From: Candidatus Oleincola secundus
Lineage (GTDB): Bacteria > Atribacterota > Phoenicimicrobiia > Phoenicimicrobiales > Stramentimicrobiaceae
Assembly: GCA_018400815.1 (NCBI GenBank)
Contig: JAGYLS010000041.1
Span: 1 to 16,121 of the forward strand
Direction: 5' to 3'
DNA length: 16,121 bases
Shown here: positions 2,144-16,026 of the stretch, one piece after another
Layout: every line of letters starts with the position of its first letter
Numbering within the stretch: position 1 is the stretch's first letter
Program-made: the position numbers and the translations under genes
The notes under the pieces: generated by a model
Told to the model about the DNA's origin: nothing
The model's input: only the letters and a program-made list of their open reading frames with translations
The model's database searches: none

Positions 2144-2830
2144 TTATTTATTTAATGGATTATTTTTCCTCCAGGGATGACCACAGGACATTTCTCCTTC
2201 AGGGCATGGACCTATTACACAAGGAGGTCCGGCATCTTTAAAAATAGTAGGGGCTTCTTTTTTTACCAACCGTAACATCTCAATCGCTAATTCTCTTATT
2301 TCCCACTGTGCCCTGTTACAGCATCTTAATCTAAAAAAATGATTCAATTCTCTTGCATTAGCGGTAAAAATAATACTGGTGCTAATTGCTTGTGGTAAAA
2401 TATATCGTGCATCTTCAGCAGGAATACCTTTTTCCAGCATTTCCTGATATAAATTATAGCTTTTAGTGGTAAGGTTTTTAAATTTTAGTATAAGACTTTT
2501 ATCATCTTGTATTTTTTTCGGTATAACGTATTGCTGCTCCTTACCAACTTTAACATATCTCTGACTTCTCTGTGAAAAAGAAGCTATGCGGTGTCGGACT
2601 AGTTGATGTGAGCAAGTCCTGGAAATATTTTCTATGCCAAAAGTAAAACATATATGTTCCAAAACGGAATAATGACCTAACTTCATAATTTTTTCAATTA
2701 ATTTAGTCTGCTTATCCATATCAAAGGACTCTGCTATTTCTTGTATACTCTTTGAAGAGTAACATAGCCTTGCTGATTGAGCTACCGTTTTTTCAGGATT
2801 TTTAGAAAAGTTTATAAGCCGTACTTTCAT
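2144..2830 (-). CDS. thyX: FAD-dependent thymidylate synthase ThyX
   Basis: GHYSVLEH, ThyX signature SHQLVRHRIASFSQRSQRY, EDARYILP, LRCCNRAQWEIR. Confidence 0.96.
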   Translation of the reverse strand: MKVRLINFSKNPEKTVAQSARLCYSSKSIQEIAESFDMDKQTKLIEKIMKLGHYSVLEHICFTFGIENISRTCSHQLVRHRIASFSQRSQRYVKVGKEQQYVIPKKIQDDKSLILKFKNLTTKSYNLYQEMLEKGIPAEDARYILPQAISTSIIFTANARELNHFFRLRCCNRAQWEIRELAIEMLRLVKKEAPTIFKDAGPPCVIGPCPEGEMSCGHPWRKNNPLNK

Positions 2831-2854
2831 ATTTATTCGAATTCCTTGTTTTTT

Positions 2855-3448
2855 CTAAATTATGTCTTTCTTTTTATTTGTAACTTGATGATGCTGTCGG
2901 CATCTTGCTTCATAGCTTTCCTTGGCACCAATAAGTATAGTTGGGTCATTATAATCTGCCGGTTTACCGTTCACTAACCGCTGGGTACGCGTAGCAGGTT
3001 TCCCACATACCATACATATTGCATGAAGTTTATCTACATATTCGGCAATTGCAAGCAACTTTGGCATAGGACCAAAAGGGTCACCTCGAAAATCCTGGTC
3101 AAGGCCGGCAATAATAACTCGCTTTCCCCTATCGGCCAACAACTGACAAACTTGAATGATTCCTTCATCAAAAAATTGTGCTTCATCAATCGCAATCACA
3201 TCACTATCCTGGTTTATTTTTTTTAGGATTTCTTTAGAATTTTCAATACAATTAGCCTCGACTTTGCTACCATTGTGAGAGTAGATATACTGGACATGAT
3301 AGCGGTTATCAATTATTGGTTTAAATATTTCTACCTTTTTCCGGGCAATCTGGACACGCCTGACCCTTCTTATTAGTTCTTCACTTTTTCCGCTGAACAT
3401 GCTCCCACAGATTACTTCAATACTTCCACCTTCACAGGTTTCATGCAT
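2855..3448 (-). CDS. tdk: Thymidine kinase (TK1-like)
   Basis: [12 protein letters not shown]-loop, [25 protein letters not shown]...YEARCRQH zinc site. Start set at ATG 3448, 8 nt from GGAGG (3457-3461), rather than 3466. Confidence 0.97.
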
Positions 3449-3486
3449 CTTGATTTCCTCCATCAATGTCTACTCTTAGCAAGTTT

Positions 3487-3550
3487 GTTAAAATCATTTT
3501 ATTTAACCATTACCACTTTTAAAGAAGTGATTTTTATTGTTAAATAAAAA
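3487..3550. repeat. Palindromic intergenic repeat, degenerate copy 3
   Basis: TTTTATTTAACCATTACCACTTTTAAAGAAGTGATTTTTATTGTTAAATAAAAA aligns with the copies at 935-988 and 8914-8966 with several substitutions that weaken both stems. Confidence 0.8.
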
Positions 3551-6427: not shown

Positions 6428-8065
<1,638 letters not shown>

Positions 8066-8086
8066 TCATATTGTGCCAAATAAATA

Positions 8087-8629
8087 CAATTTACCAATTG
8101 GCCAGTTTACCAGTTTACCAATTATTCTTGGTCTGCCAGTCAAAACGTATCGAGCCTAAAGACAATCCCCAATCACTAATCTCCAGTCTCCAATCGAGGT
8201 ATTTAACCAATTAAGACCAGTTTTCAGTTCTTAGTTCAATACAAAATATACTTTACCTATTTAGCAAATAATTCGTATTACGTCCAATATCAGTATCGAG
8301 TATGTAGTATCGAGTCCTAAATACAGTAATAAGTGAATAGTAATGAGTAATCAGTAAGAAAATAATATCCGAGCTACCAATTATAACAGCATAACAATAA
8401 AAACAAAAAATTTGAAATCTTATCTGGATCTAAAAACTAAAAACCATAAACTAGAAACTAGAAACAGTTTTTCAATTGACTAGATACTAAATACCAACAA
8501 ACAACGAACGTATTATTATTTCCAATTCTTCCATTTTTAAATCATTACATTTATGCATACATTTTTTACTGTAGCATTTCACGGTATACTCTGTCTTAAC
8601 TCGATACTCGATACTACATACACGATACT
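8087..8629. repeat. Cluster of short tandem repeat arrays (one 8-bp period, the rest 7-bp period, each with a different unit)
   Basis: CARTTTAC-type octamer 8087-8123; CAATCHC-type 8163-8195; CAGTTYT-type 8218-8238; AGTATCG-type 8292-8315; NAGTAAT-type 8324-8358; CTARAAA-type 8430-8465; ACTARAT and CAACRAA 8479-8510; ACTCGAT-type 8599-8629. Confidence 0.9.
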
Positions 8630-8725
8630 TTTGTTAGATACGCTACTAATTAATAAATACTTTCATATTATAATAGGAAATAGAAAAAAAGATAAGGCTT
8701 TAGATAAAATTTTTTTGATTTTCAG

Positions 8726-8776
8726 TAAATATCGCACCCGCTCAGCGGGTGGCTTTAAGAACCTCTAAAAGAGGTT
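8726..8776 (-). mobile_element. Tandem hairpins resembling an IS200-family right end (no transposase present)
   Basis: Minus strand AACCTCT-TTT-AGAGGTT-CTTAAAGC-CACCCGC-TGA-GCGGGTG-CGATATTTA. The hairpins are seen directly. The resemblance to the IS200 3' terminus (subterminal hairpin then GATATTTA) is recalled and not verified by search. Confidence 0.5.
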
Positions 8777-8835
8777 TAACCTTTTAGCTCTTTTTCATTC
8801 GATTTTTTACTTAACCTTTAGCCATAATATTTCTT

Positions 8836-8966
8836 AGCAATGGTACTTCCAACTTTGGACTTCAGGTGAAAAATTGTCATCTAGCTTATCTTAATCTTTT
8901 TATGGTAAAACCATTTATTTAACCATTACCACCTTCTTAGAAGGTGGTTTTTATGGTTAAATAAAA
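8836..8966. repeat. Palindromic intergenic repeat, copy 2
   Basis: Outer stem 8914-8926 / 8953-8965; inner stem ACCACCTTC-TTA-GAAGGTGGT at 8928-8948; 8901-8966 is nearly identical to 921-988. Confidence 0.9.
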
Positions 8967-8978
8967 ATATTAAATAAA

Positions 8979-9614
8979 TTAATAATTCAACACATAAATA
9001 GTGGTTTTCTCAGGAAGAGTTGATGAATTAACCTCAAAAAAATTCTCACCGACCATTTTTATATTTTGTTTTTCATTAAGAAATACAGACAATGGATCGA
9101 TTGACCACTTAATCGCCTCAGTTTTATAATGCATAGGAATAACTATTTTTGCTTTAATCTGATTAATTACCTGTTCTGCCTGAATATGGTTAATTGTAAA
9201 ATATCCACCTACTGGTATAAATAAAATATCAACATTATTTATTTGTTCTAATTGCTCATTATACAGTAAATGGCCTAAATCACCGAGATGACACAATGTT
9301 AATTCATCTGTTTTTGTTACAAAAATCGTGTTCTCTCCTCTATGCTTGCCATAAACGCTATCATGATAGGATGAAATTCCTTTGAAAACTATCTTATGGG
9401 TATCTCGGTTAACAGGTCCTTTTAAGACAACTGGTTTTCCCTTTATGCCCATTGTGTTATTATGGTCATAATGTTCATGGCTAATAGTAATAATATTAAT
9501 TTTTTCTTTGGTCATACGGTAGCCCAATGTCTCATCAAAAGGGTCTGTTAAAATATTAATTCCTCGTTCATTGGTTATTAAAAAACAGGAATGTCCTAAC
9601 CACCTTATTTTCAT
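8979..9614 (-). CDS. MBL-fold metallo-hydrolase (substrate unknown)
   Basis: WLGHSCFLI, ILTDPF, SHEHYDH (HxHxDH), HLGDLG, IPVGG, IPMHY. Confidence 0.92.
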   Translation of the reverse strand: MKIRWLGHSCFLITNERGINILTDPFDETLGYRMTKEKINIITISHEHYDHNNTMGIKGKPVVLKGPVNRDTHKIVFKGISSYHDSVYGKHRGENTIFVTKTDELTLCHLGDLGHLLYNEQLEQINNVDILFIPVGGYFTINHIQAEQVINQIKAKIVIPMHYKTEAIKWSIDPLSVFLNEKQNIKMVGENFFEVNSSTLPEKTTIYVLNY

Positions 9615-9644: not shown

Positions 9645-11147
9645 CTATAATTTTCCATTCATAAAAAACTGGAAAAGAAAATTAATTTTCTTTTGGGCAA
9701 TAGAGCCAGGATAAGCCAATATAATATTACCCGATTCTGATAATTCGATTATATTGAACGGCTCTTGAGTCAATTGTTTAATAATACTTTTCACTAGTCC
9801 TTCTTCAATACTATTAATTTCATTAGAATTTTTTGAAATACCAATTTCCTTAAAAAGTAAATTGATATCCATATAATTATTTTTTTCCCTTGCAATTTGT
9901 AAAATTTTCATTATCTCTCTTATTAAAATCCATTGGTCCCATTGTTTTTCTCTTATTCCCATTAATTTATCACTATTATTGCTGGGATGATGCATAGGAC
10001 TGAAAGCAATTTGTAATTCAAACAACGAAAAAGGCATGCGTTGATGCTCTCTGATAATATTATATAACATAGAAATTTCGTATAGTTGAATCCCCTCTTC
10101 GCTAGACCTATCAATCAATTCTTTAACAGAAAATATTTCTGAAAATAATATTACCGAATTTACACCTATATCCTCTTTTATTTTTTTGATACCAGGCCAA
10201 TCGATTGACCGTATCATGTTAATATTATAATTCTTAGGTAAACCGGTAATCAATAAAGAATAAGATTTGTAATCTAAATCAGCTCTGGCAACCAATAACC
10301 TATGCCTGTAATTATCAAGATATTCAACCTTATACCCTAGAAATTCAAAGCACTGTTTGAGAAAAACATGGAAATCCTTAACACTATCGGCATGCAAGAG
10401 GTTTCGGTAAATTTGTTCTATTTCGTTTAACCACTCAATTAAGCCCCAATGATCTTTCGATATTTCTACATAGCGGGAGTCACTATTTAATATACTTTTA
10501 ATATATTCTGCAAATAAACCCCTATTATCCGGTTCCTGCTTGATAATTTCCGCATAAATCCGGGAATAACTCAATGGTTGTCCTTCTTCTTTTAAAACCT
10601 GATAAATAGTATCACCAATATCTTTTTTTGTATCTGGCCTGATATCCTTCTCCGCAATGATGAAATATTTCTTCTTACTATCGTCAATCAAGCCAATTAA
10701 AAGTGTATCATTTACATCTAATTTTCTCTTTCGATACCATTCTTTTAAGCCGAAGATAAGCTTTTTGCGATAATTAACCAGTGCATTAATCTCTTCTCCA
10801 TCAATATCTACAAAGATAATCTCAATATTACGGTCATCACGGCTCCAGCTAAAATGTGGTTTTAAGTAACTGGTTAAAAAAATAGTGCCATTACGTAGAC
10901 AATAGGAAGTCAATGTGTAAGGTAAATGGGCTTCCCGGTATTTCCATTTAACCAAACCCCATATTCCGCGTTGATACCTTATAAACCTCTGGTCTACACC
11001 CATAGAAGCATTAACATCATGATGAGGATTTTCTGCTTTTAAATCTTTAACTTTTATTACCTCTTCAGTGATTTGGCGATAATGCATTGGTCGATGGTTT
11101 TCTTCCAGAATGTCATAAGCCAAATCAGCAATTGATTTTTTATGCAT
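9645..11147 (-). CDS. Multidomain protein: two HARE-HTH (RNA polymerase delta N-terminal-like) domains, putative B3-like domain, degenerate restriction-endonuclease-like domain
   Basis: 500-aa ORF with GGAGG RBS (11154-11158). Internal repeat aa 4-68 (SIADLAYDILEENHRPMHYRQI...DQRFIRYQRGIWGLVKW) and aa 175-239 (DIGDTIYQVLKEEGQPLSYSRI...DSRYVEISKDHWGLIEW); both end in the D-x-R-F/Y...WGLxxW pattern of the RpoE N-domain. The CDS is near certain; the other domain calls are tentative. Confidence 0.75.
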   Translation of the reverse strand: MHKKSIADLAYDILEENHRPMHYRQITEEVIKVKDLKAENPHHDVNASMGVDQRFIRYQRGIWGLVKWKYREAHLPYTLTSYCLRNGTIFLTSYLKPHFSWSRDDRNIEIIFVDIDGEEINALVNYRKKLIFGLKEWYRKRKLDVNDTLLIGLIDDSKKKYFIIAEKDIRPDTKKDIGDTIYQVLKEEGQPLSYSRIYAEIIKQEPDNRGLFAEYIKSILNSDSRYVEISKDHWGLIEWLNEIEQIYRNLLHADSVKDFHVFLKQCFEFLGYKVEYLDNYRHRLLVARADLDYKSYSLLITGLPKNYNINMIRSIDWPGIKKIKEDIGVNSVILFSEIFSVKELIDRSSEEGIQLYEISMLYNIIREHQRMPFSLFELQIAFSPMHHPSNNSDKLMGIREKQWDQWILIREIMKILQIAREKNNYMDINLLFKEIGISKNSNEINSIEEGLVKSIIKQLTQEPFNIIELSESGNIILAYPGSIAQKKINFLFQFFMNGKL

Positions 11148-11175
11148 TCACTACCTCCGACAGATAATCCAAAAC

Positions 11176-11679
11176 CTATTTCTTATAGTTTTTCATTAAC
11201 TTGACATATCCATCTGCGTGTTCTCGTAACATATCATGTTCTTTTTTAGAAATTTGTCTAACCACTTTACCGGGAATCCCCATGACCATTGAATTGGCAG
11301 GAATAACTGTTTTGGGTGTTACCACTGTTCCGGCAGCAATAATTACATTTTCCTCAATTACTGCTTCATCTAATATATTAGCCCCTGAACCAATTAAGGA
11401 ATAGTCTTTAACAGTACAACCATGCAGAATTGCACCATGTCCAATTGTAACATAGTTTCCGATTTTAGTGGGCACATTTTTTGCCACATGTATCAATACG
11501 CCGTCCTGAACACTAGTATGATGACCTATAGAAATAAAATCCAAATCACCACGCAAAACCGAATAAAACCAAATACTACTCAATTTTCCGATATACACCT
11601 GCCCGACGATACTAGCGTTTTCTACTACCAAAGATGTTTCGTCAATGCTGGGAGTTTTATTATTGTACTTCAAAATCAT
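11176..11679 (-). CDS. Gamma-carbonic-anhydrase family protein (YrdA/CaiE/PaaY-like hexapeptide repeat)
   Basis: SVLRGD, SVQDGVLIH, TIGHGAILHGC (three His ligands), MGIPGKVVR. Start set at ATG 11679 with GGAGG at 11686-11690; overlaps the uvrC end by 20 nt. Confidence 0.93.
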   Translation of the reverse strand: MILKYNNKTPSIDETSLVVENASIVGQVYIGKLSSIWFYSVLRGDLDFISIGHHTSVQDGVLIHVAKNVPTKIGNYVTIGHGAILHGCTVKDYSLIGSGANILDEAVIEENVIIAAGTVVTPKTVIPANSMVMGIPGKVVRQISKKEHDMLREHADGYVKLMKNYKK

Positions 11680-13153
11680 ATCTAACCTCCAAAATATCCT
11701 TAATTTTACAGGCGGTTTTTTCGCCAATCCCTGGTATTTCTTTTAATTCTCTTATTTCAGCTTTTCTGATATGTTCTATGCTTTTAAATTTGGACAAAAG
11801 TTGTTTTTTTCTTTTTTCTCCAATTCCCGGAATAAAATCAATTACCGAATTTCTTATGAGTTTACTGCGAAGTTTTTTATGATAACTAATTGCAAAGCGA
11901 TGGGCTTCATCTCTAATTCTCTGAATAAGAAAAAACACTTCTGAATTCCTGGGTAGCAAAATTGGCTCCTTTTTTCCAGGCCGAAACAGCTCTTCTTCTC
12001 TTTTAGCCAATGATGCTAGCTCTAATTGCACGTCCAATTCTTGTAGTGCTCCAAGAGTTATATTCAGTTGTCCTTTTCCACCATCTAACAATACTAAATC
12101 AGGCAAATTCTCCTTTTTTAATTTACTATCCCGAAATCGTCTATATATAACTTCTCTCATCATGGCAAAATCATTAATACCTTTTACATCTTTTATCTTA
12201 AAATGACGATACTTTTTCTTATCCGGTATTCCTGATTTAAAAGCAACCAAAGAACCGACCGATATTTGTCCATGAATATTAGAGATATCGAAGGCCTCAA
12301 TATTTAATGGAACTACTTTTAATTCTAAATATCTCTGTAAATCCTGAAGCGCTTTGATGAGCGAATTATGATTCTTTTTTTCAGTTAAATAAAAATTCTG
12401 TTTTCTCCGATAATATCTACTGATTTTCTCCTGACTGATTACTTTCTCTATCATACTGATTGTATCTCTAAGTTTAGCAGCTCTTTCGTATAACATTAAT
12501 TGAGAAGCAATTTTCATTTCTTCTTTTAACCTTTTTAGCAGTATATTATGTTGGCCGGATAACAAAAGACAGCATTCCTTTACATTTTTAGAATAATCAT
12601 CTTGACCTATTTTGCCGGCACAGGGAGCAGAACACAAGCCAATCTGGTAATCAAGACAGGTATTTCTATAATTGAATTTCCTTTGGCTGCAATTTCTTAA
12701 TTTAAATATTTCCCTTAATTTTTTAACAGCTTTCCTGGTTATCTCCACATCTATAAAAGGACCAAAATAACGTGCTTTCTTGTCCCTAATTTTCCTGTTT
12801 TTTCTAATCAGGTGTATAGCGGGAAAAGAGTCTTTCGTGGTAATTTGAATATAAGGATAACTCTTATCGTCCTTTAACTGGGTATTAAAGTGAGGCCTAT
12901 TTTTTTTAACCAGATTGCTCTCTAAAAGTAATGCCTCCATTTCCGAAGCAGTAGTAATGTACTCTATATCATAAATCCTACCAATCATTTGACTTACTTT
13001 TGCTGAATGAGCATACGATTTATTGAAATAGGAACTTACTCTGTTTCTTAAAGAAATTGCCTTACCAATATATATGATATTGCCGGTTTGATCTTTAAAA
13101 AGATAAACACCGCTTTTCTGAGGCAGCTGTTTAACTTTTTCTAAAATGTTCAT
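11660..13153 (-). CDS. uvrC: Excinuclease ABC subunit C (short form, about 497 aa)
   Basis: GIY-YIG domain (GVYLFKD...IIYIGKAISLRNRVSSYF), LKDDKSYPY, Cys cluster, UVR helix pair (YERAAKLRD), IEAFDISN, LDGGKGQ, RDEAHRFA, tandem HhH (IPGIGEK twice). Start set at ATG 13153 with AGGAGA RBS. Confidence 0.96.
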   Translation of the reverse strand: MNILEKVKQLPQKSGVYLFKDQTGNIIYIGKAISLRNRVSSYFNKSYAHSAKVSQMIGRIYDIEYITTASEMEALLLESNLVKKNRPHFNTQLKDDKSYPYIQITTKDSFPAIHLIRKNRKIRDKKARYFGPFIDVEITRKAVKKLREIFKLRNCSQRKFNYRNTCLDYQIGLCSAPCAGKIGQDDYSKNVKECCLLLSGQHNILLKRLKEEMKIASQLMLYERAAKLRDTISMIEKVISQEKISRYYRRKQNFYLTEKKNHNSLIKALQDLQRYLELKVVPLNIEAFDISNIHGQISVGSLVAFKSGIPDKKKYRHFKIKDVKGINDFAMMREVIYRRFRDSKLKKENLPDLVLLDGGKGQLNITLGALQELDVQLELASLAKREEELFRPGKKEPILLPRNSEVFFLIQRIRDEAHRFAISYHKKLRSKLIRNSVIDFIPGIGEKRKKQLLSKFKSIEHIRKAEIRELKEIPGIGEKTACKIKDILEVRYDFEVQ

Positions 13154-13188
13154 AGCGTCTCCTAAATTAAATCCTCTCAACAATACTA

Positions 13189-16026
13189 TTACCGATACAG
13201 TTCCGGTTTCATAATATTTTTTAGAAATTGTCCGGTAAAAGAAGCAGGGTGTTGGATAAGTTTTTCTGGTGTACCTTCAAATACTATTTGACCTCCTTCT
13301 TCACCACCACCAGGACCCAAGTCTATAATATGATCAGCCGATTTAATCACTTCAAGATTATGTTCAATAACCAATACAGTATTCCCCTGTTCAACAAGCC
13401 TGTTTAACACCTCCAATAGTTTTCTGACATCATCGAAATGTAACCCTGTCGTAGGTTCGTCTAATAGATACAATGTTCGGCCGGTATTTTTTTTACTTAA
13501 TTCTTTCGAAAGTTTAATTCTTTGTGCTTCTCCTCCTGATAAGGTACTGGCAGACTGCCCTAATTTGATATAACCCAGGCCTACATCGGTAAGAGTTTGC
13601 AAACTTCTTTTTATTTTAGGAATATTTTCAAAAAATTGACTGGCTTCTTCTACCGTCATATCCAAGACTTCAGCAATATTCTTATTCTTATATTTAATCT
13701 CCAGAGTTTCCCTGTTGAATCTTTTTCCTTTACAAACCTCACAGGGAATATATATATCCGGCAAAAAAAACATTTCTATCTTGACTATTCCAGCACCCTC
13801 GCAAGCTTCACACCTTCCACCTTTAACATTGAAACTAAACCTTCCCGGCAGATATCCTCTCATTTTGGCAGATTTGGTCATGGCAAACAATTCTCTGATA
13901 GGAGTAAATGCACCTGTATAGGTGGCCGGATTTGAACGAGATGTCCTGCCAATAGGAGACTGATCAATGGTAATTACTTTATCAATATTTTCTATTCCCT
14001 GCAAACACTCATGGGCCCCCGGCCTAACCCGGCTATGATATAAATTCTTGATAAGGGACTTATATAATATTTCTTCAATTAAAGTACTTTTACCTGAACC
14101 GGAAACCCCGGTAACACAATTCAATTTTCCCAAAGGTATCGTAACATCAATATTTTTTAAATTAAACTGGCTGGCACCAATTATTTTTATGTTTTTATTA
14201 TTGCCAATCCTCCTGTTTTGTGGAATTGGTATATGCCTTTTTCTGCTTAAATATTGGCCGGTTATGGAGTTCTTTTTAAGTTGGATATTCTTTTCATTAC
14301 CCTGTGCTACAAGATATCCTCCGTGTATTCCTGCCCCCGGTCCCAGGTCAACAATAAAATCAGCGGAACGAATAGTTGCCTCATCATGCTCTATTACAAT
14401 AACCGTATTCCCCTGATCTCTTAGCTGAAGCAAAGTCTGCAATAATTTATCATTATCCCGTTGATGTAACCCAATAGATGGTTCATCCAGAATATACAGG
14501 ACACCGGTTAAACTGGAGCCAATTTGAGTAGCTAATCTGATTCTCTGGTTTTCCCCTCCTGCCAGAGTCGAGGAAGAGCGGGAAAGAGTAATATAATCCA
14601 GGCCAACATTCATTAAAAAACTTAACCGATTGGTTATTTCCTTCCTAACCTGTTTTGATATCTCTGCCTCTCTTCTATCAATGCTGAGACTACTAAAAAA
14701 GTCAACTAATTTCCTGATTGTCATATCTGATAAATCAGCGATAGAATAATCAGCAATCTTTACCATTAAACTTTCCGGTCGAAGTCTCTTTCCATTACAG
14801 ACAGAACAATTATTGACAGTCATATATTTTTGAATTTCAGAACGTATATACTCTGATTTAGTTTCCCTGTATCTTCTCTTCAAATTATTAATAACACCTT
14901 CAAATTCATTTTTGTGCACCCATCTATGATCATCTTCTTGCTGCTGATACTCAAAGGTTATTTTATCTTTTCCGGAACCATAAAGCAAAACAACCTGTTG
15001 TTCCCGGGTTAATTTATTAAATGGGGTAGCAAGATTAAAGCCATAATGTTTAGCAACTCCAGATAAAATATGATATAAGTACCGTCCTTTTACATTCCCC
15101 CATGGTAACAGGGCACCTTCTAAAACTGAAATATTTTTATCCGGCACTACTAAATCAGGGTCAAATTCCATTTTATATCCTAACCCGCCACAATTGGGAC
15201 AGGCGCCATATGGACTGTTGAATGAGAATATTCTGGGGGTTATTTCCGGTAAACTAATTCCGCAATGGGGGCAGGAAAACTTTTCACTGAAAATATGTTC
15301 TTTTTCCTGTTCATCTAAAATAACAACCAATCCATCACTTAATTGCAATGCTGTCTCTATAGAGCTGCTTACTCTACTCTTTATTTCCGCTTTTATTATC
15401 AATCGGTCAACAACAATATCAATGTTGTGCATTTTGTACCGGGCTAAATTTATTTCATCATCCACTTCAACCATTTGTCCATCAACCCTTAGCCGTATAA
15501 ATCCTTTTTTTCTAATATCTTCAATAACTTGCCGGTGTTCGCCCTTCTTAGCTTTAATAACAGGAGACAATATTTTTATTCTACTGTTTTGAGGCATTTT
15601 CATTACCCGATCAACGATTTGATCTATCGTCTGTCTACTTATCTTCCTACCACACTTTGGACAGTGGGGGATGCCAATCCTGGCATAGAGCAGGCGCAAA
15701 TAATCGTATATCTCGGTAACTGTTCCCACAGTAGAACGGGGATTCTTACTTGACTTTCTTTGGTCTATTGAAATGGATGGCGATAATCCTTCAATATAGT
15801 CCACATCCGGTTTATCCATCTTTTCCATAAATTGTCTGGCATAAGAAGATAAAGATTCAATATAACGTCGCTGACTTTCTGCATAAATAGTATCAAAAGC
15901 CAGAGACGATTTTCCCGAACCACTTAAGCCGGTAATGACAATGAGTTTATTTCGGGGTATGTTTAGGGAAATATTTTTTAAATTATGCTCCCTTGCCCCT
16001 TTTATGCTTATTTTATTATGTGCCAT
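13189..16026 (-). CDS. uvrA: Excinuclease ABC subunit A
   Basis: GAREHNLKN, two Walker A motifs ([18 protein letters not shown]), several CxxC zinc modules, LDEPSIGLH and LDEPTTGLH, 945 aa; GGGAG RBS. Confidence 0.99.

Follow-up and report, generated by a model that had tools for sequence, protein, structure and literature searches.

The window analysed here, the whole stretch of 16,121 nucleotides, carries a gene for a 500-aa protein that is very probably a disarmed restriction enzyme turned host DNA-binding factor; a role in repair or genome maintenance in particular is a more tentative matter, to which we give slightly less than an even chance. We propose that an Mrr-like, FokI-fold modification-dependent restriction enzyme lost its catalytic site and became a domesticated chromosomal gene, whose product would now serve as a non-cutting DNA-binding adaptor, most likely in genome maintenance.

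Five modules at a housekeeping locus

A sequence-only reading of this DNA had picked out two related segments of about 65 aa and proposed the order HARE-HTH, B3-like domain, HARE-HTH, dead restriction endonuclease and winged helix, and our analysis bears out both claims. The segments (aa 4-68 and 175-239) can be aligned gap-free, with 18/65 identities, and end in D52-x-R-F-x7-WGLxxW68 and D223-x-R-Y-x7-WGLxxW239, respectively. Both are HARE-HTH domains, as Pfam PF05066 matches the protein in two stretches (48.5 bits, E 1.1e-12; gathering cut-off 25.9). Every module is backed by an AlphaFold2 model (built on 43 sequences; mean pLDDT 85.1) and by two fold searches with it, VIA-align and Foldseek. 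VIA-align found winged helices at 1-68, 170-249 and 401-498 (Z 8.4-10.3), with several winged-helix matches to the last of these (Z 8.4-9.2); a B3 barrel at 72-169 (FUS3-DNA, Z 12.0, rmsd 2.6 over 97); and a nuclease fold at 241-403 (N.BspD6I, Z 14.4, rmsd 2.9 over 156; FokI, Z 12.1; HindIII, Z 11.0). HTH2 matched the delta structure 8x6g_E (Z 9.3, rmsd 3.0 over 74). Foldseek agreed with these module calls, with B3 matches at E 8e-4. Model and fold searches thus show the seven-stranded pseudo-barrel of a B3 domain, which lies below detection by the Pfam B3 model (best E 0.055, in one homolog).

Table 1. Features of the 500-aa gene and its neighbours (window coordinates)
Feature	Coordinates	Strand	Remarks
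HARE-HTH / B3 / HARE-HTH / inactive Mrr-FokI-type nuclease fold / winged helix gene	9645..11147	-	500 aa; ATG start
Shine-Dalgarno GGAGGT	11153..11158	-	5 nt before the ATG of the 500-aa gene; read from sequence
HTH1, HARE-HTH (aa 4-68)	10944..11138	-	most conserved module (at least 90% conserved in 33/67 columns); absent from Deinococcota homologs
B3 pseudo-barrel (aa 73-168)	10644..10931	-	conserved Y-x-L-T-x-x-C-L-x-x-G start, common to Deinococcota homologs
HTH2, HARE-HTH (aa 175-240)	10428..10625	-	degenerate form retained in Trueperaceae homologs
Inactive PD-(D/E)xK fold (aa 243-400)	9948..10421	-	structure comparison and residue counts
Long helix and C-terminal winged helix (aa 401-498)	9654..9947	-	inherited with the nuclease fold from an Mrr-like family
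Gamma carbonic anhydrase-like gene	11176..11679	-	upstream neighbour, 28-nt gap
uvrA and uvrC, abutting or overlapping	11660..16026	-	head of the same gene run; names by sequence recognition
MBL-fold hydrolase gene	8979..9614	-	downstream neighbour, 30-nt gap
pyrG	6428..8053	-	second gene downstream of the 500-aa gene

In the window, uvrA, uvrC and the gamma carbonic anhydrase-like gene form one run with the 500-aa gene, and its GC3 (0.29) lies within the range of its neighbours (0.25-0.34). Downstream follow pyrG, an NTP transferase gene, rho, rpmE, tdk, thyX and prfA (rho, rpmE, tdk and prfA recognised from sequence), thyX standing directly after tdk (window 2144-3466). The gene had been placed two genes upstream of pyrG in a pyrG-rho-rpmE-tdk-prfA backbone, and this is correct, with the MBL-fold gene and a 925-bp gap in between and thyX as a further member of the run. 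Among the 29 best related loci, surveyed with 1.5-kb flanks, uvrC lies upstream in 29/29, the carbonic anhydrase-like gene upstream in 27 and the MBL gene downstream in 27 (the two misses are contig edges), while pyrG is visible in 21. In family f7 the order gene-MBL-pyrG-NTP transferase-rho is retained and the upstream gene is pseudopilin-like, not uvrC; the most constant Atribacterota neighbours are MBL and pyrG rather than repair genes. In the f3, f4 and f6 genomes, an arginyl-tRNA synthetase-like gene (by motif) abuts pyrG in 4/4 checked.

Scans of the region for promoters and terminators gave hits at chance level (28 promoter-like sites against 36.6 expected), and Rfam and ARAGORN had no match in the window. 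In RNA libraries, contigs from relatives overlap parts of the gene (9 low-share libraries), from which transcription, strand and level cannot be read. These libraries' contig depth is dominated by a MITE-like repeat of about 245 bp with hairpin ends, which lies at window 8722-8965, also at 857-991 and 3486-3550, and has 37 near-full copies on 28 contigs of genome G000. The long gap before pyrG (window 8060-8630) holds further short repeats without an Rfam match, among them GTATCGAGTA-like units near 8270-8330 with up to 17 genome matches.

The close homologs are named Atribacterota, of a class that we take to be JS1. In a survey of 86 Atribacterota genomes (counts exclude G000), the gene was present in 20/21 genomes of family f1, 25/30 of f2 and 2/2 of f7 (together 47/53) and in 0/32 of f3-f6; a profile search gave 20/21, 26/30 and 2/2, plus one unrelated 24-aa match in f3. 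It is single-copy, two double matches being partial pieces on separate contigs. G073 and G035 (98% completeness) have the flanking genes joined with the gene cleanly missing, and these two clean losses mark it as dispensable. As the sequence-only reading required, the homologs are not sporadic, being single-copy and syntenic in three Atribacterota families, and they occupy a fixed housekeeping locus rather than defence islands; the sporadic, mobile or defence-island occurrence typical of restriction enzymes is not that of the Atribacterota gene. PADLOC, PHROG and phage searches gave no match for the 500-aa protein, and a profile search that included distant members found no new full-length relatives. 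One full five-module member at 27% identity, P0051 (L109:3522-4130), carries the remnant D-A-E where D-x-K would stand; its gene comes after a shikimate dehydrogenase-like one on a metagenome locus at a contig end.

The C-terminal half descends from an Mrr-like nuclease family

The PD-(D/E)xK fold is present and its catalytic E...D...D-x-K residues are absent: the E, D and D-x-K positions are occupied by H260, L284 and T301-G-L303. The D...D-x-K site occurs in 0/45 family proteins, against 26/27 relatives, and the D-G-K half alone is retained in three of the 45. An exhaustive search found many proteins matching aa 243-490; these relatives carry Mrr_cat and align across the nuclease fold, the long helix and the winged helix. 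The C-terminal half thus descends from an Mrr-like family of nuclease plus winged helix that keeps its site. One relative, P0057, combines a HARE-HTH and the same type of B3 with an intact nuclease and a winged helix, and is a plausible image of the ancestor. Its plasmid relatives are sporadic (7 records); five are annotated as restriction endonucleases, one of them in an archaeon. One plasmid relative lies beside a recombinase and its listing holds no methyltransferase, which fits the expectation for a modification-dependent enzyme.

Two weak matches, P0180 and P0181, led to a second family, in Deinococcota (alignment A4; P0181, P0327, P0333). Its profile aligns collinearly with that of the Atribacterota family over aa 74-482 (HHalign 99.6%, E 9.7e-25) and matches 296/299 Deinococcota genomes (295/298 without the unpublished genome G354), with one gene per genome in 31/32 checked. 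Identical proteins in the sources are named only 'hypothetical protein', and Pfam gave no match above cut-off in the five members scanned. The model of a Deinococcota member shows, in order, B3, a small winged helix, a disordered linker (pLDDT under 50 at 157-221), the nuclease fold and a winged helix; in a Trueperaceae homolog these folds matched B3 at Z 12.4, BspD6I at Z 11.0 and the DpnI winged helix at Z 8.8. The B3 start motif is shared by 108/119 members, the B3 arm is nearly fixed within each of the two groups, and the N-terminal part of a Deinococcus-type member has the window's B3 as its only match in G000 (E 7e-7). The catalytic motif is absent in 118/119 members, the single match being off-register, and a degenerate HTH2 is retained only in Trueperaceae-type members. 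Searches with this family found nothing significant among PDB sequences and no match among plasmids. HTH1 is absent from the Deinococcota homologs and is the best-conserved module in Atribacterota, so function may not be the same in the two groups.

In a tree of the nuclease part, the Atribacterota and Deinococcota groups each form a strong clade (100/99 and 100/100). The two dead clades are not joined (1% of bootstraps) and may represent two separate inactivations, but a tree that joins them is not rejected (AU p 0.26); the HTH2 insertion and the B3 start motif common to both point rather to a single origin.

As all modules come from restriction systems, the protein could still belong to defence, as a sensor that would recognise foreign or modified DNA without cutting it and trigger an effector encoded elsewhere. 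In PMC12065111, dead nuclease and B3 modules of Menshen are proposed DNA sensors, NsnA combining them with a winged helix. We consider this the least probable of the alternatives, given the single copy at a fixed housekeeping locus, neighbours among which no methyltransferase or effector was seen, near-universal occurrence in Deinococcota, a recognition arm that is conserved rather than variable, and the lack of a PADLOC match.

HTH1 and RNA polymerase's delta subunit

In Bacillus, rpoE lies directly upstream of pyrG, and the sequence-only reading had suggested that the present gene could replace the delta subunit that rpoE encodes. Aravind and Iyer reportedly published a link between the HARE-HTHs of delta and of restriction enzymes in 2012. 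That the domain is common to both is, at any rate, known from PMC3417536 and from the Pfam name. As described in PMC7749165, PMC11156646 and bioRxiv 2021.06.06.447298, delta has a folded domain lodged between shelf and jaw of beta-prime and a disordered, acidic tail by which nucleic acid is displaced, and it is the tail that does delta's work (PMC7749165).

The replacement proposal is not supported: the acidic tail and the delta helix motif are absent, HTH1 falls outside the delta clade, the C-terminal half is Mrr-like, and the Deinococcota counterpart lacks HTH1 and sits far from pyrG. The lack of an acidic tail had itself been read correctly from the sequence. The last 60 aa are 10% D/E and the C-terminus is folded; the protein reaches at most 9 D/E per 40 aa, compared with 14-26 in 5/5 delta proteins examined. 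The delta helix motif [IL]-[YH]-T-x-[IL]-N-x-D, drawn from search matches and PDB alignments, occurs in 12/207 proteins, none of them from the Atribacterota family, and HTH1 instead carries the K-x-x-P...V-N-A pattern of small stand-alone and nuclease-linked non-delta HARE-HTHs. The 500-aa protein is thus probably not a member of the delta family.

A weaker version is that the protein is an analogue of delta, in which HTH1 would dock on beta-prime at the delta site and the rest would form a tethered DNA-binding arm, possibly coupling transcription to UvrABC. The NCBIfam delta model TIGR04567 matches the whole protein in two stretches (63.7 bits; cut-off 42), and HTH1 alone passes at 46.9 bits, which speaks for such an analogue; however, among 44 proteins, four that are not delta also pass (45-63 bits, with five deltas at 64-108). 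On a delta profile, 7/10 HTH1 domains score above all 84 non-delta HARE-HTHs, yet HTH1 (56-76) stays below left-out deltas (82-111), and on a non-delta profile it scores above deltas (88-107 against 53-76); these profiles are partly circular, 14 proteins having been labelled delta by motif (2 added by hand) and all rows having been retrieved by likeness to the query. Delta forms a 99/96 clade without HTH1 in a tree of 71 columns and 54 rows (HTH2 rows excluded, and 30 non-delta rows drawn at random from the 77 left once 7 long ones had been removed), and a quick HTH tree also places HTH1 outside, although forcing HTH1 together with the delta clade, as its sister, is not rejected (AU p 0.33).

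Further points for an analogue are the conservation of HTH1, which exceeds that of every other module (its identity to the far family is 63%, where the others reach 26-53%), and a PDB sequence search in which all six matches under E 0.06 are delta. As the sequence-only reading expected, PF05066 searches of 86 genomes and TIGR04567 searches of five turned up no separate canonical rpoE; apart from the family itself, PF05066 matched four proteins in those 86 genomes, all sporadic and in surroundings of a nuclease or defence-like kind. Against this, Atribacterota without the 500-aa gene proved to be without delta as well. The linkage to MBL and pyrG, with the gene second upstream of pyrG in three Atribacterota families, is also on the side of an analogue; the Deinococcota homologs, which lack HTH1, lie elsewhere. 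Co-folding of HTH1 (aa 1-78) with the shelf/jaw segment of the genome's own beta-prime (719 aa) weighs neither way (score 0.01, mark 0.32). On balance, we hold a delta analogue to be improbable.

In RpoC of this genome (G000:C162:3325-8460 (-), locus L167), about 333 aa are inserted where B. subtilis beta-prime has residue 1110, within the shelf/jaw span, and a second insert lies in the N-terminal clamp region. The former insertion is also found in 4/4 other Atribacterota families checked and is absent in one Thermus-like genome; being phylum-wide, it is not tied to the 500-aa gene. Several proteins (P0079 and P0157; also P0112, P0163, P0149 and P0091) combine a HARE-HTH with a B3-like domain without the nuclease fold. 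In a small tree, P0079 and P0157 group as sisters of delta (93/91); in P0091, B3 and HARE-HTH are fused with alpha-CTD and sigma-4 repeats. For the Atribacterota proteins of the present family, automatic labelling as 'RNA polymerase delta' (6 of 46 matches) is unsafe.

A possible role in genome maintenance and comparison with known systems

The linkages to repair genes are suggestive, but they differ by lineage and are not universal, and the loci of kin are not independent. In Thermus-like loci, a gene for a DnaQ-like DEDDh exonuclease abuts upstream in 28/30. The N-terminus of this exonuclease is itself a HARE-HTH (HHalign 96% to delta and non-delta profiles, 17% to HTH1), so that where the counterpart lost its HARE-HTHs, the neighbouring gene carries one. 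This domain (L128:440-1183, L200-L227) is unannotated and missed by Pfam; neither G000 nor G034 yielded an HTH-DEDDh gene. mutY lies directly downstream in 10/30 Deinococcus-like loci and is missing from the other 20, and RNase R lies upstream in 41/71 Trueperaceae loci, 280-1041 bp away.

Judging from the families involved, the B3, HARE-HTH and winged-helix modules would bind duplex DNA, the conserved B3 arm would imply a fixed target, and the dead nuclease fold with its long helix may supply an extra DNA contact or oligomerisation. The weakest step, which draws on the neighbouring genes, is that the adaptor might mark modified, damaged or unusual DNA and pass it to processing enzymes; candidates are UvrABC here, the HARE-HTH-DEDDh exonuclease in Thermus-like genomes and MutY in some Deinococcus-like genomes. 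HARE-HTH has been proposed as a reader of modified bases, and that of ASXL1 binds 6mA DNA (PMC6591016, PMC11037411, PMC10853773; for the candidate reader also PMC3417536).

The same disarmed enzyme could instead have become a sequence-specific transcription regulator or a nucleoid-associated protein, the bacterial counterpart of plant B3 factors and not linked to repair in any particular way. Its B3 domain matches DNA-bound plant factors best, its B3 arm is nearly fixed in each group, it has three or four DNA-binding modules, the Deinococcota forms have a long disordered linker and the neighbours vary by lineage, all of which would suit a regulator. Repeated tight, same-strand linkage to DNA-processing genes, the lack of a ligand-binding domain and the chance-level count of promoter-like sites in the region argue otherwise, and we think a regulator unlikely, though it deserves to be taken seriously.

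Returning to the adaptor, its boldest form is that a type IV restriction enzyme gave rise to a previously unrecognised family of B3, nuclease-dead chromosomal factors, present across Deinococcota with few exceptions and in some Atribacterota. Its members would recognise DNA that is modified or damaged and bring in repair nucleases (UvrC, the HARE-HTH-DEDDh exonuclease, MutY), while HTH1 may tie the Atribacterota form to RNA polymerase. Taken whole, this is rather doubtful; if true, the family would supply a core component missing so far from the picture of genome maintenance in Deinococcus and Thermus.

All the domains are individually known; the architecture, the domestication and the phylum-wide Deinococcota counterpart appear to be new as far as open-access text goes. 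In the main text of that literature, we found no description of any of the three; knockout or proteomics data may exist. A locus-tag search around putative D. radiodurans tags for RNase R and mutY returned other genes, and DR_2286 had no occurrence. Our results give a fold-level identity to a gene that occurs in 296/299 Deinococcota genomes, has no Pfam match and goes by the name 'hypothetical protein'; two species of this phylum are genetically tractable and serve as models of DNA repair and transcription. The results also offer a clear case in which a disarmed restriction enzyme was retained as a host gene; one relative, P0057, is intact, and half-decayed intermediates can be seen as well.

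RpoE of Bacillota (TIGR04567; PDB 2KRC, 6ZCA, 8X6G) shares the N-terminal HARE-HTH fold with its D-x-R-F...WGL-x-x-W pattern, a place near pyrG and a model whose NCBIfam cut-off HTH1 just exceeds. It differs in being about 100-170 aa long with an acidic disordered tail, where the present protein has 500 aa, no tail and four extra modules; in its [IL]-[YH]-T-x-[IL]-N-x-D helix, absent here; in its clade, which leaves HTH1 outside; and in gene order, an MBL gene and 925 bp separating the present gene from pyrG. In Mrr-like or FokI-fold enzymes (Mrr_cat PF04471; P0057, P0078 and the plasmid matches), the nuclease fold, long helix and winged helix are collinear with those of the present protein; some of these enzymes also carry a HARE-HTH, and P0057 carries a HARE-HTH plus B3. 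Unlike them, our protein has lost the catalytic E, D and D-x-K and gained a second, inserted HARE-HTH, and its gene is inherited vertically as part of the core, while active relatives occur sporadically. Menshen NsnA (inactive REase, B3, winged helix) draws on the same toolkit of non-cutting restriction-derived modules; by comparison with what PMC12065111 describes, the present system lacks a ParB-DUF262 core, a linked ATPase or effector gene and domain shuffling, and its context is housekeeping. The Deinococcota core protein keeps the module order B3, (degenerate HTH2), dead nuclease, winged helix and has the same B3 start motif, but no HTH1, an HTH2 only in the Trueperaceae type, a long disordered linker and other neighbours. 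The B3 domains of plant FUS3, VAL1, ARF and RAV1 and of EcoRII, BfiI, NgoAVII and LlaJI.R1 form the same seven-stranded pseudo-barrel (Z 10-12); unlike those proteins, the one described here is bacterial and chromosomal, without an active nuclease and below Pfam B3 detection. For the plant B3 factors, the route usually proposed leads from restriction enzymes, and the same route is mirrored here in bacteria.
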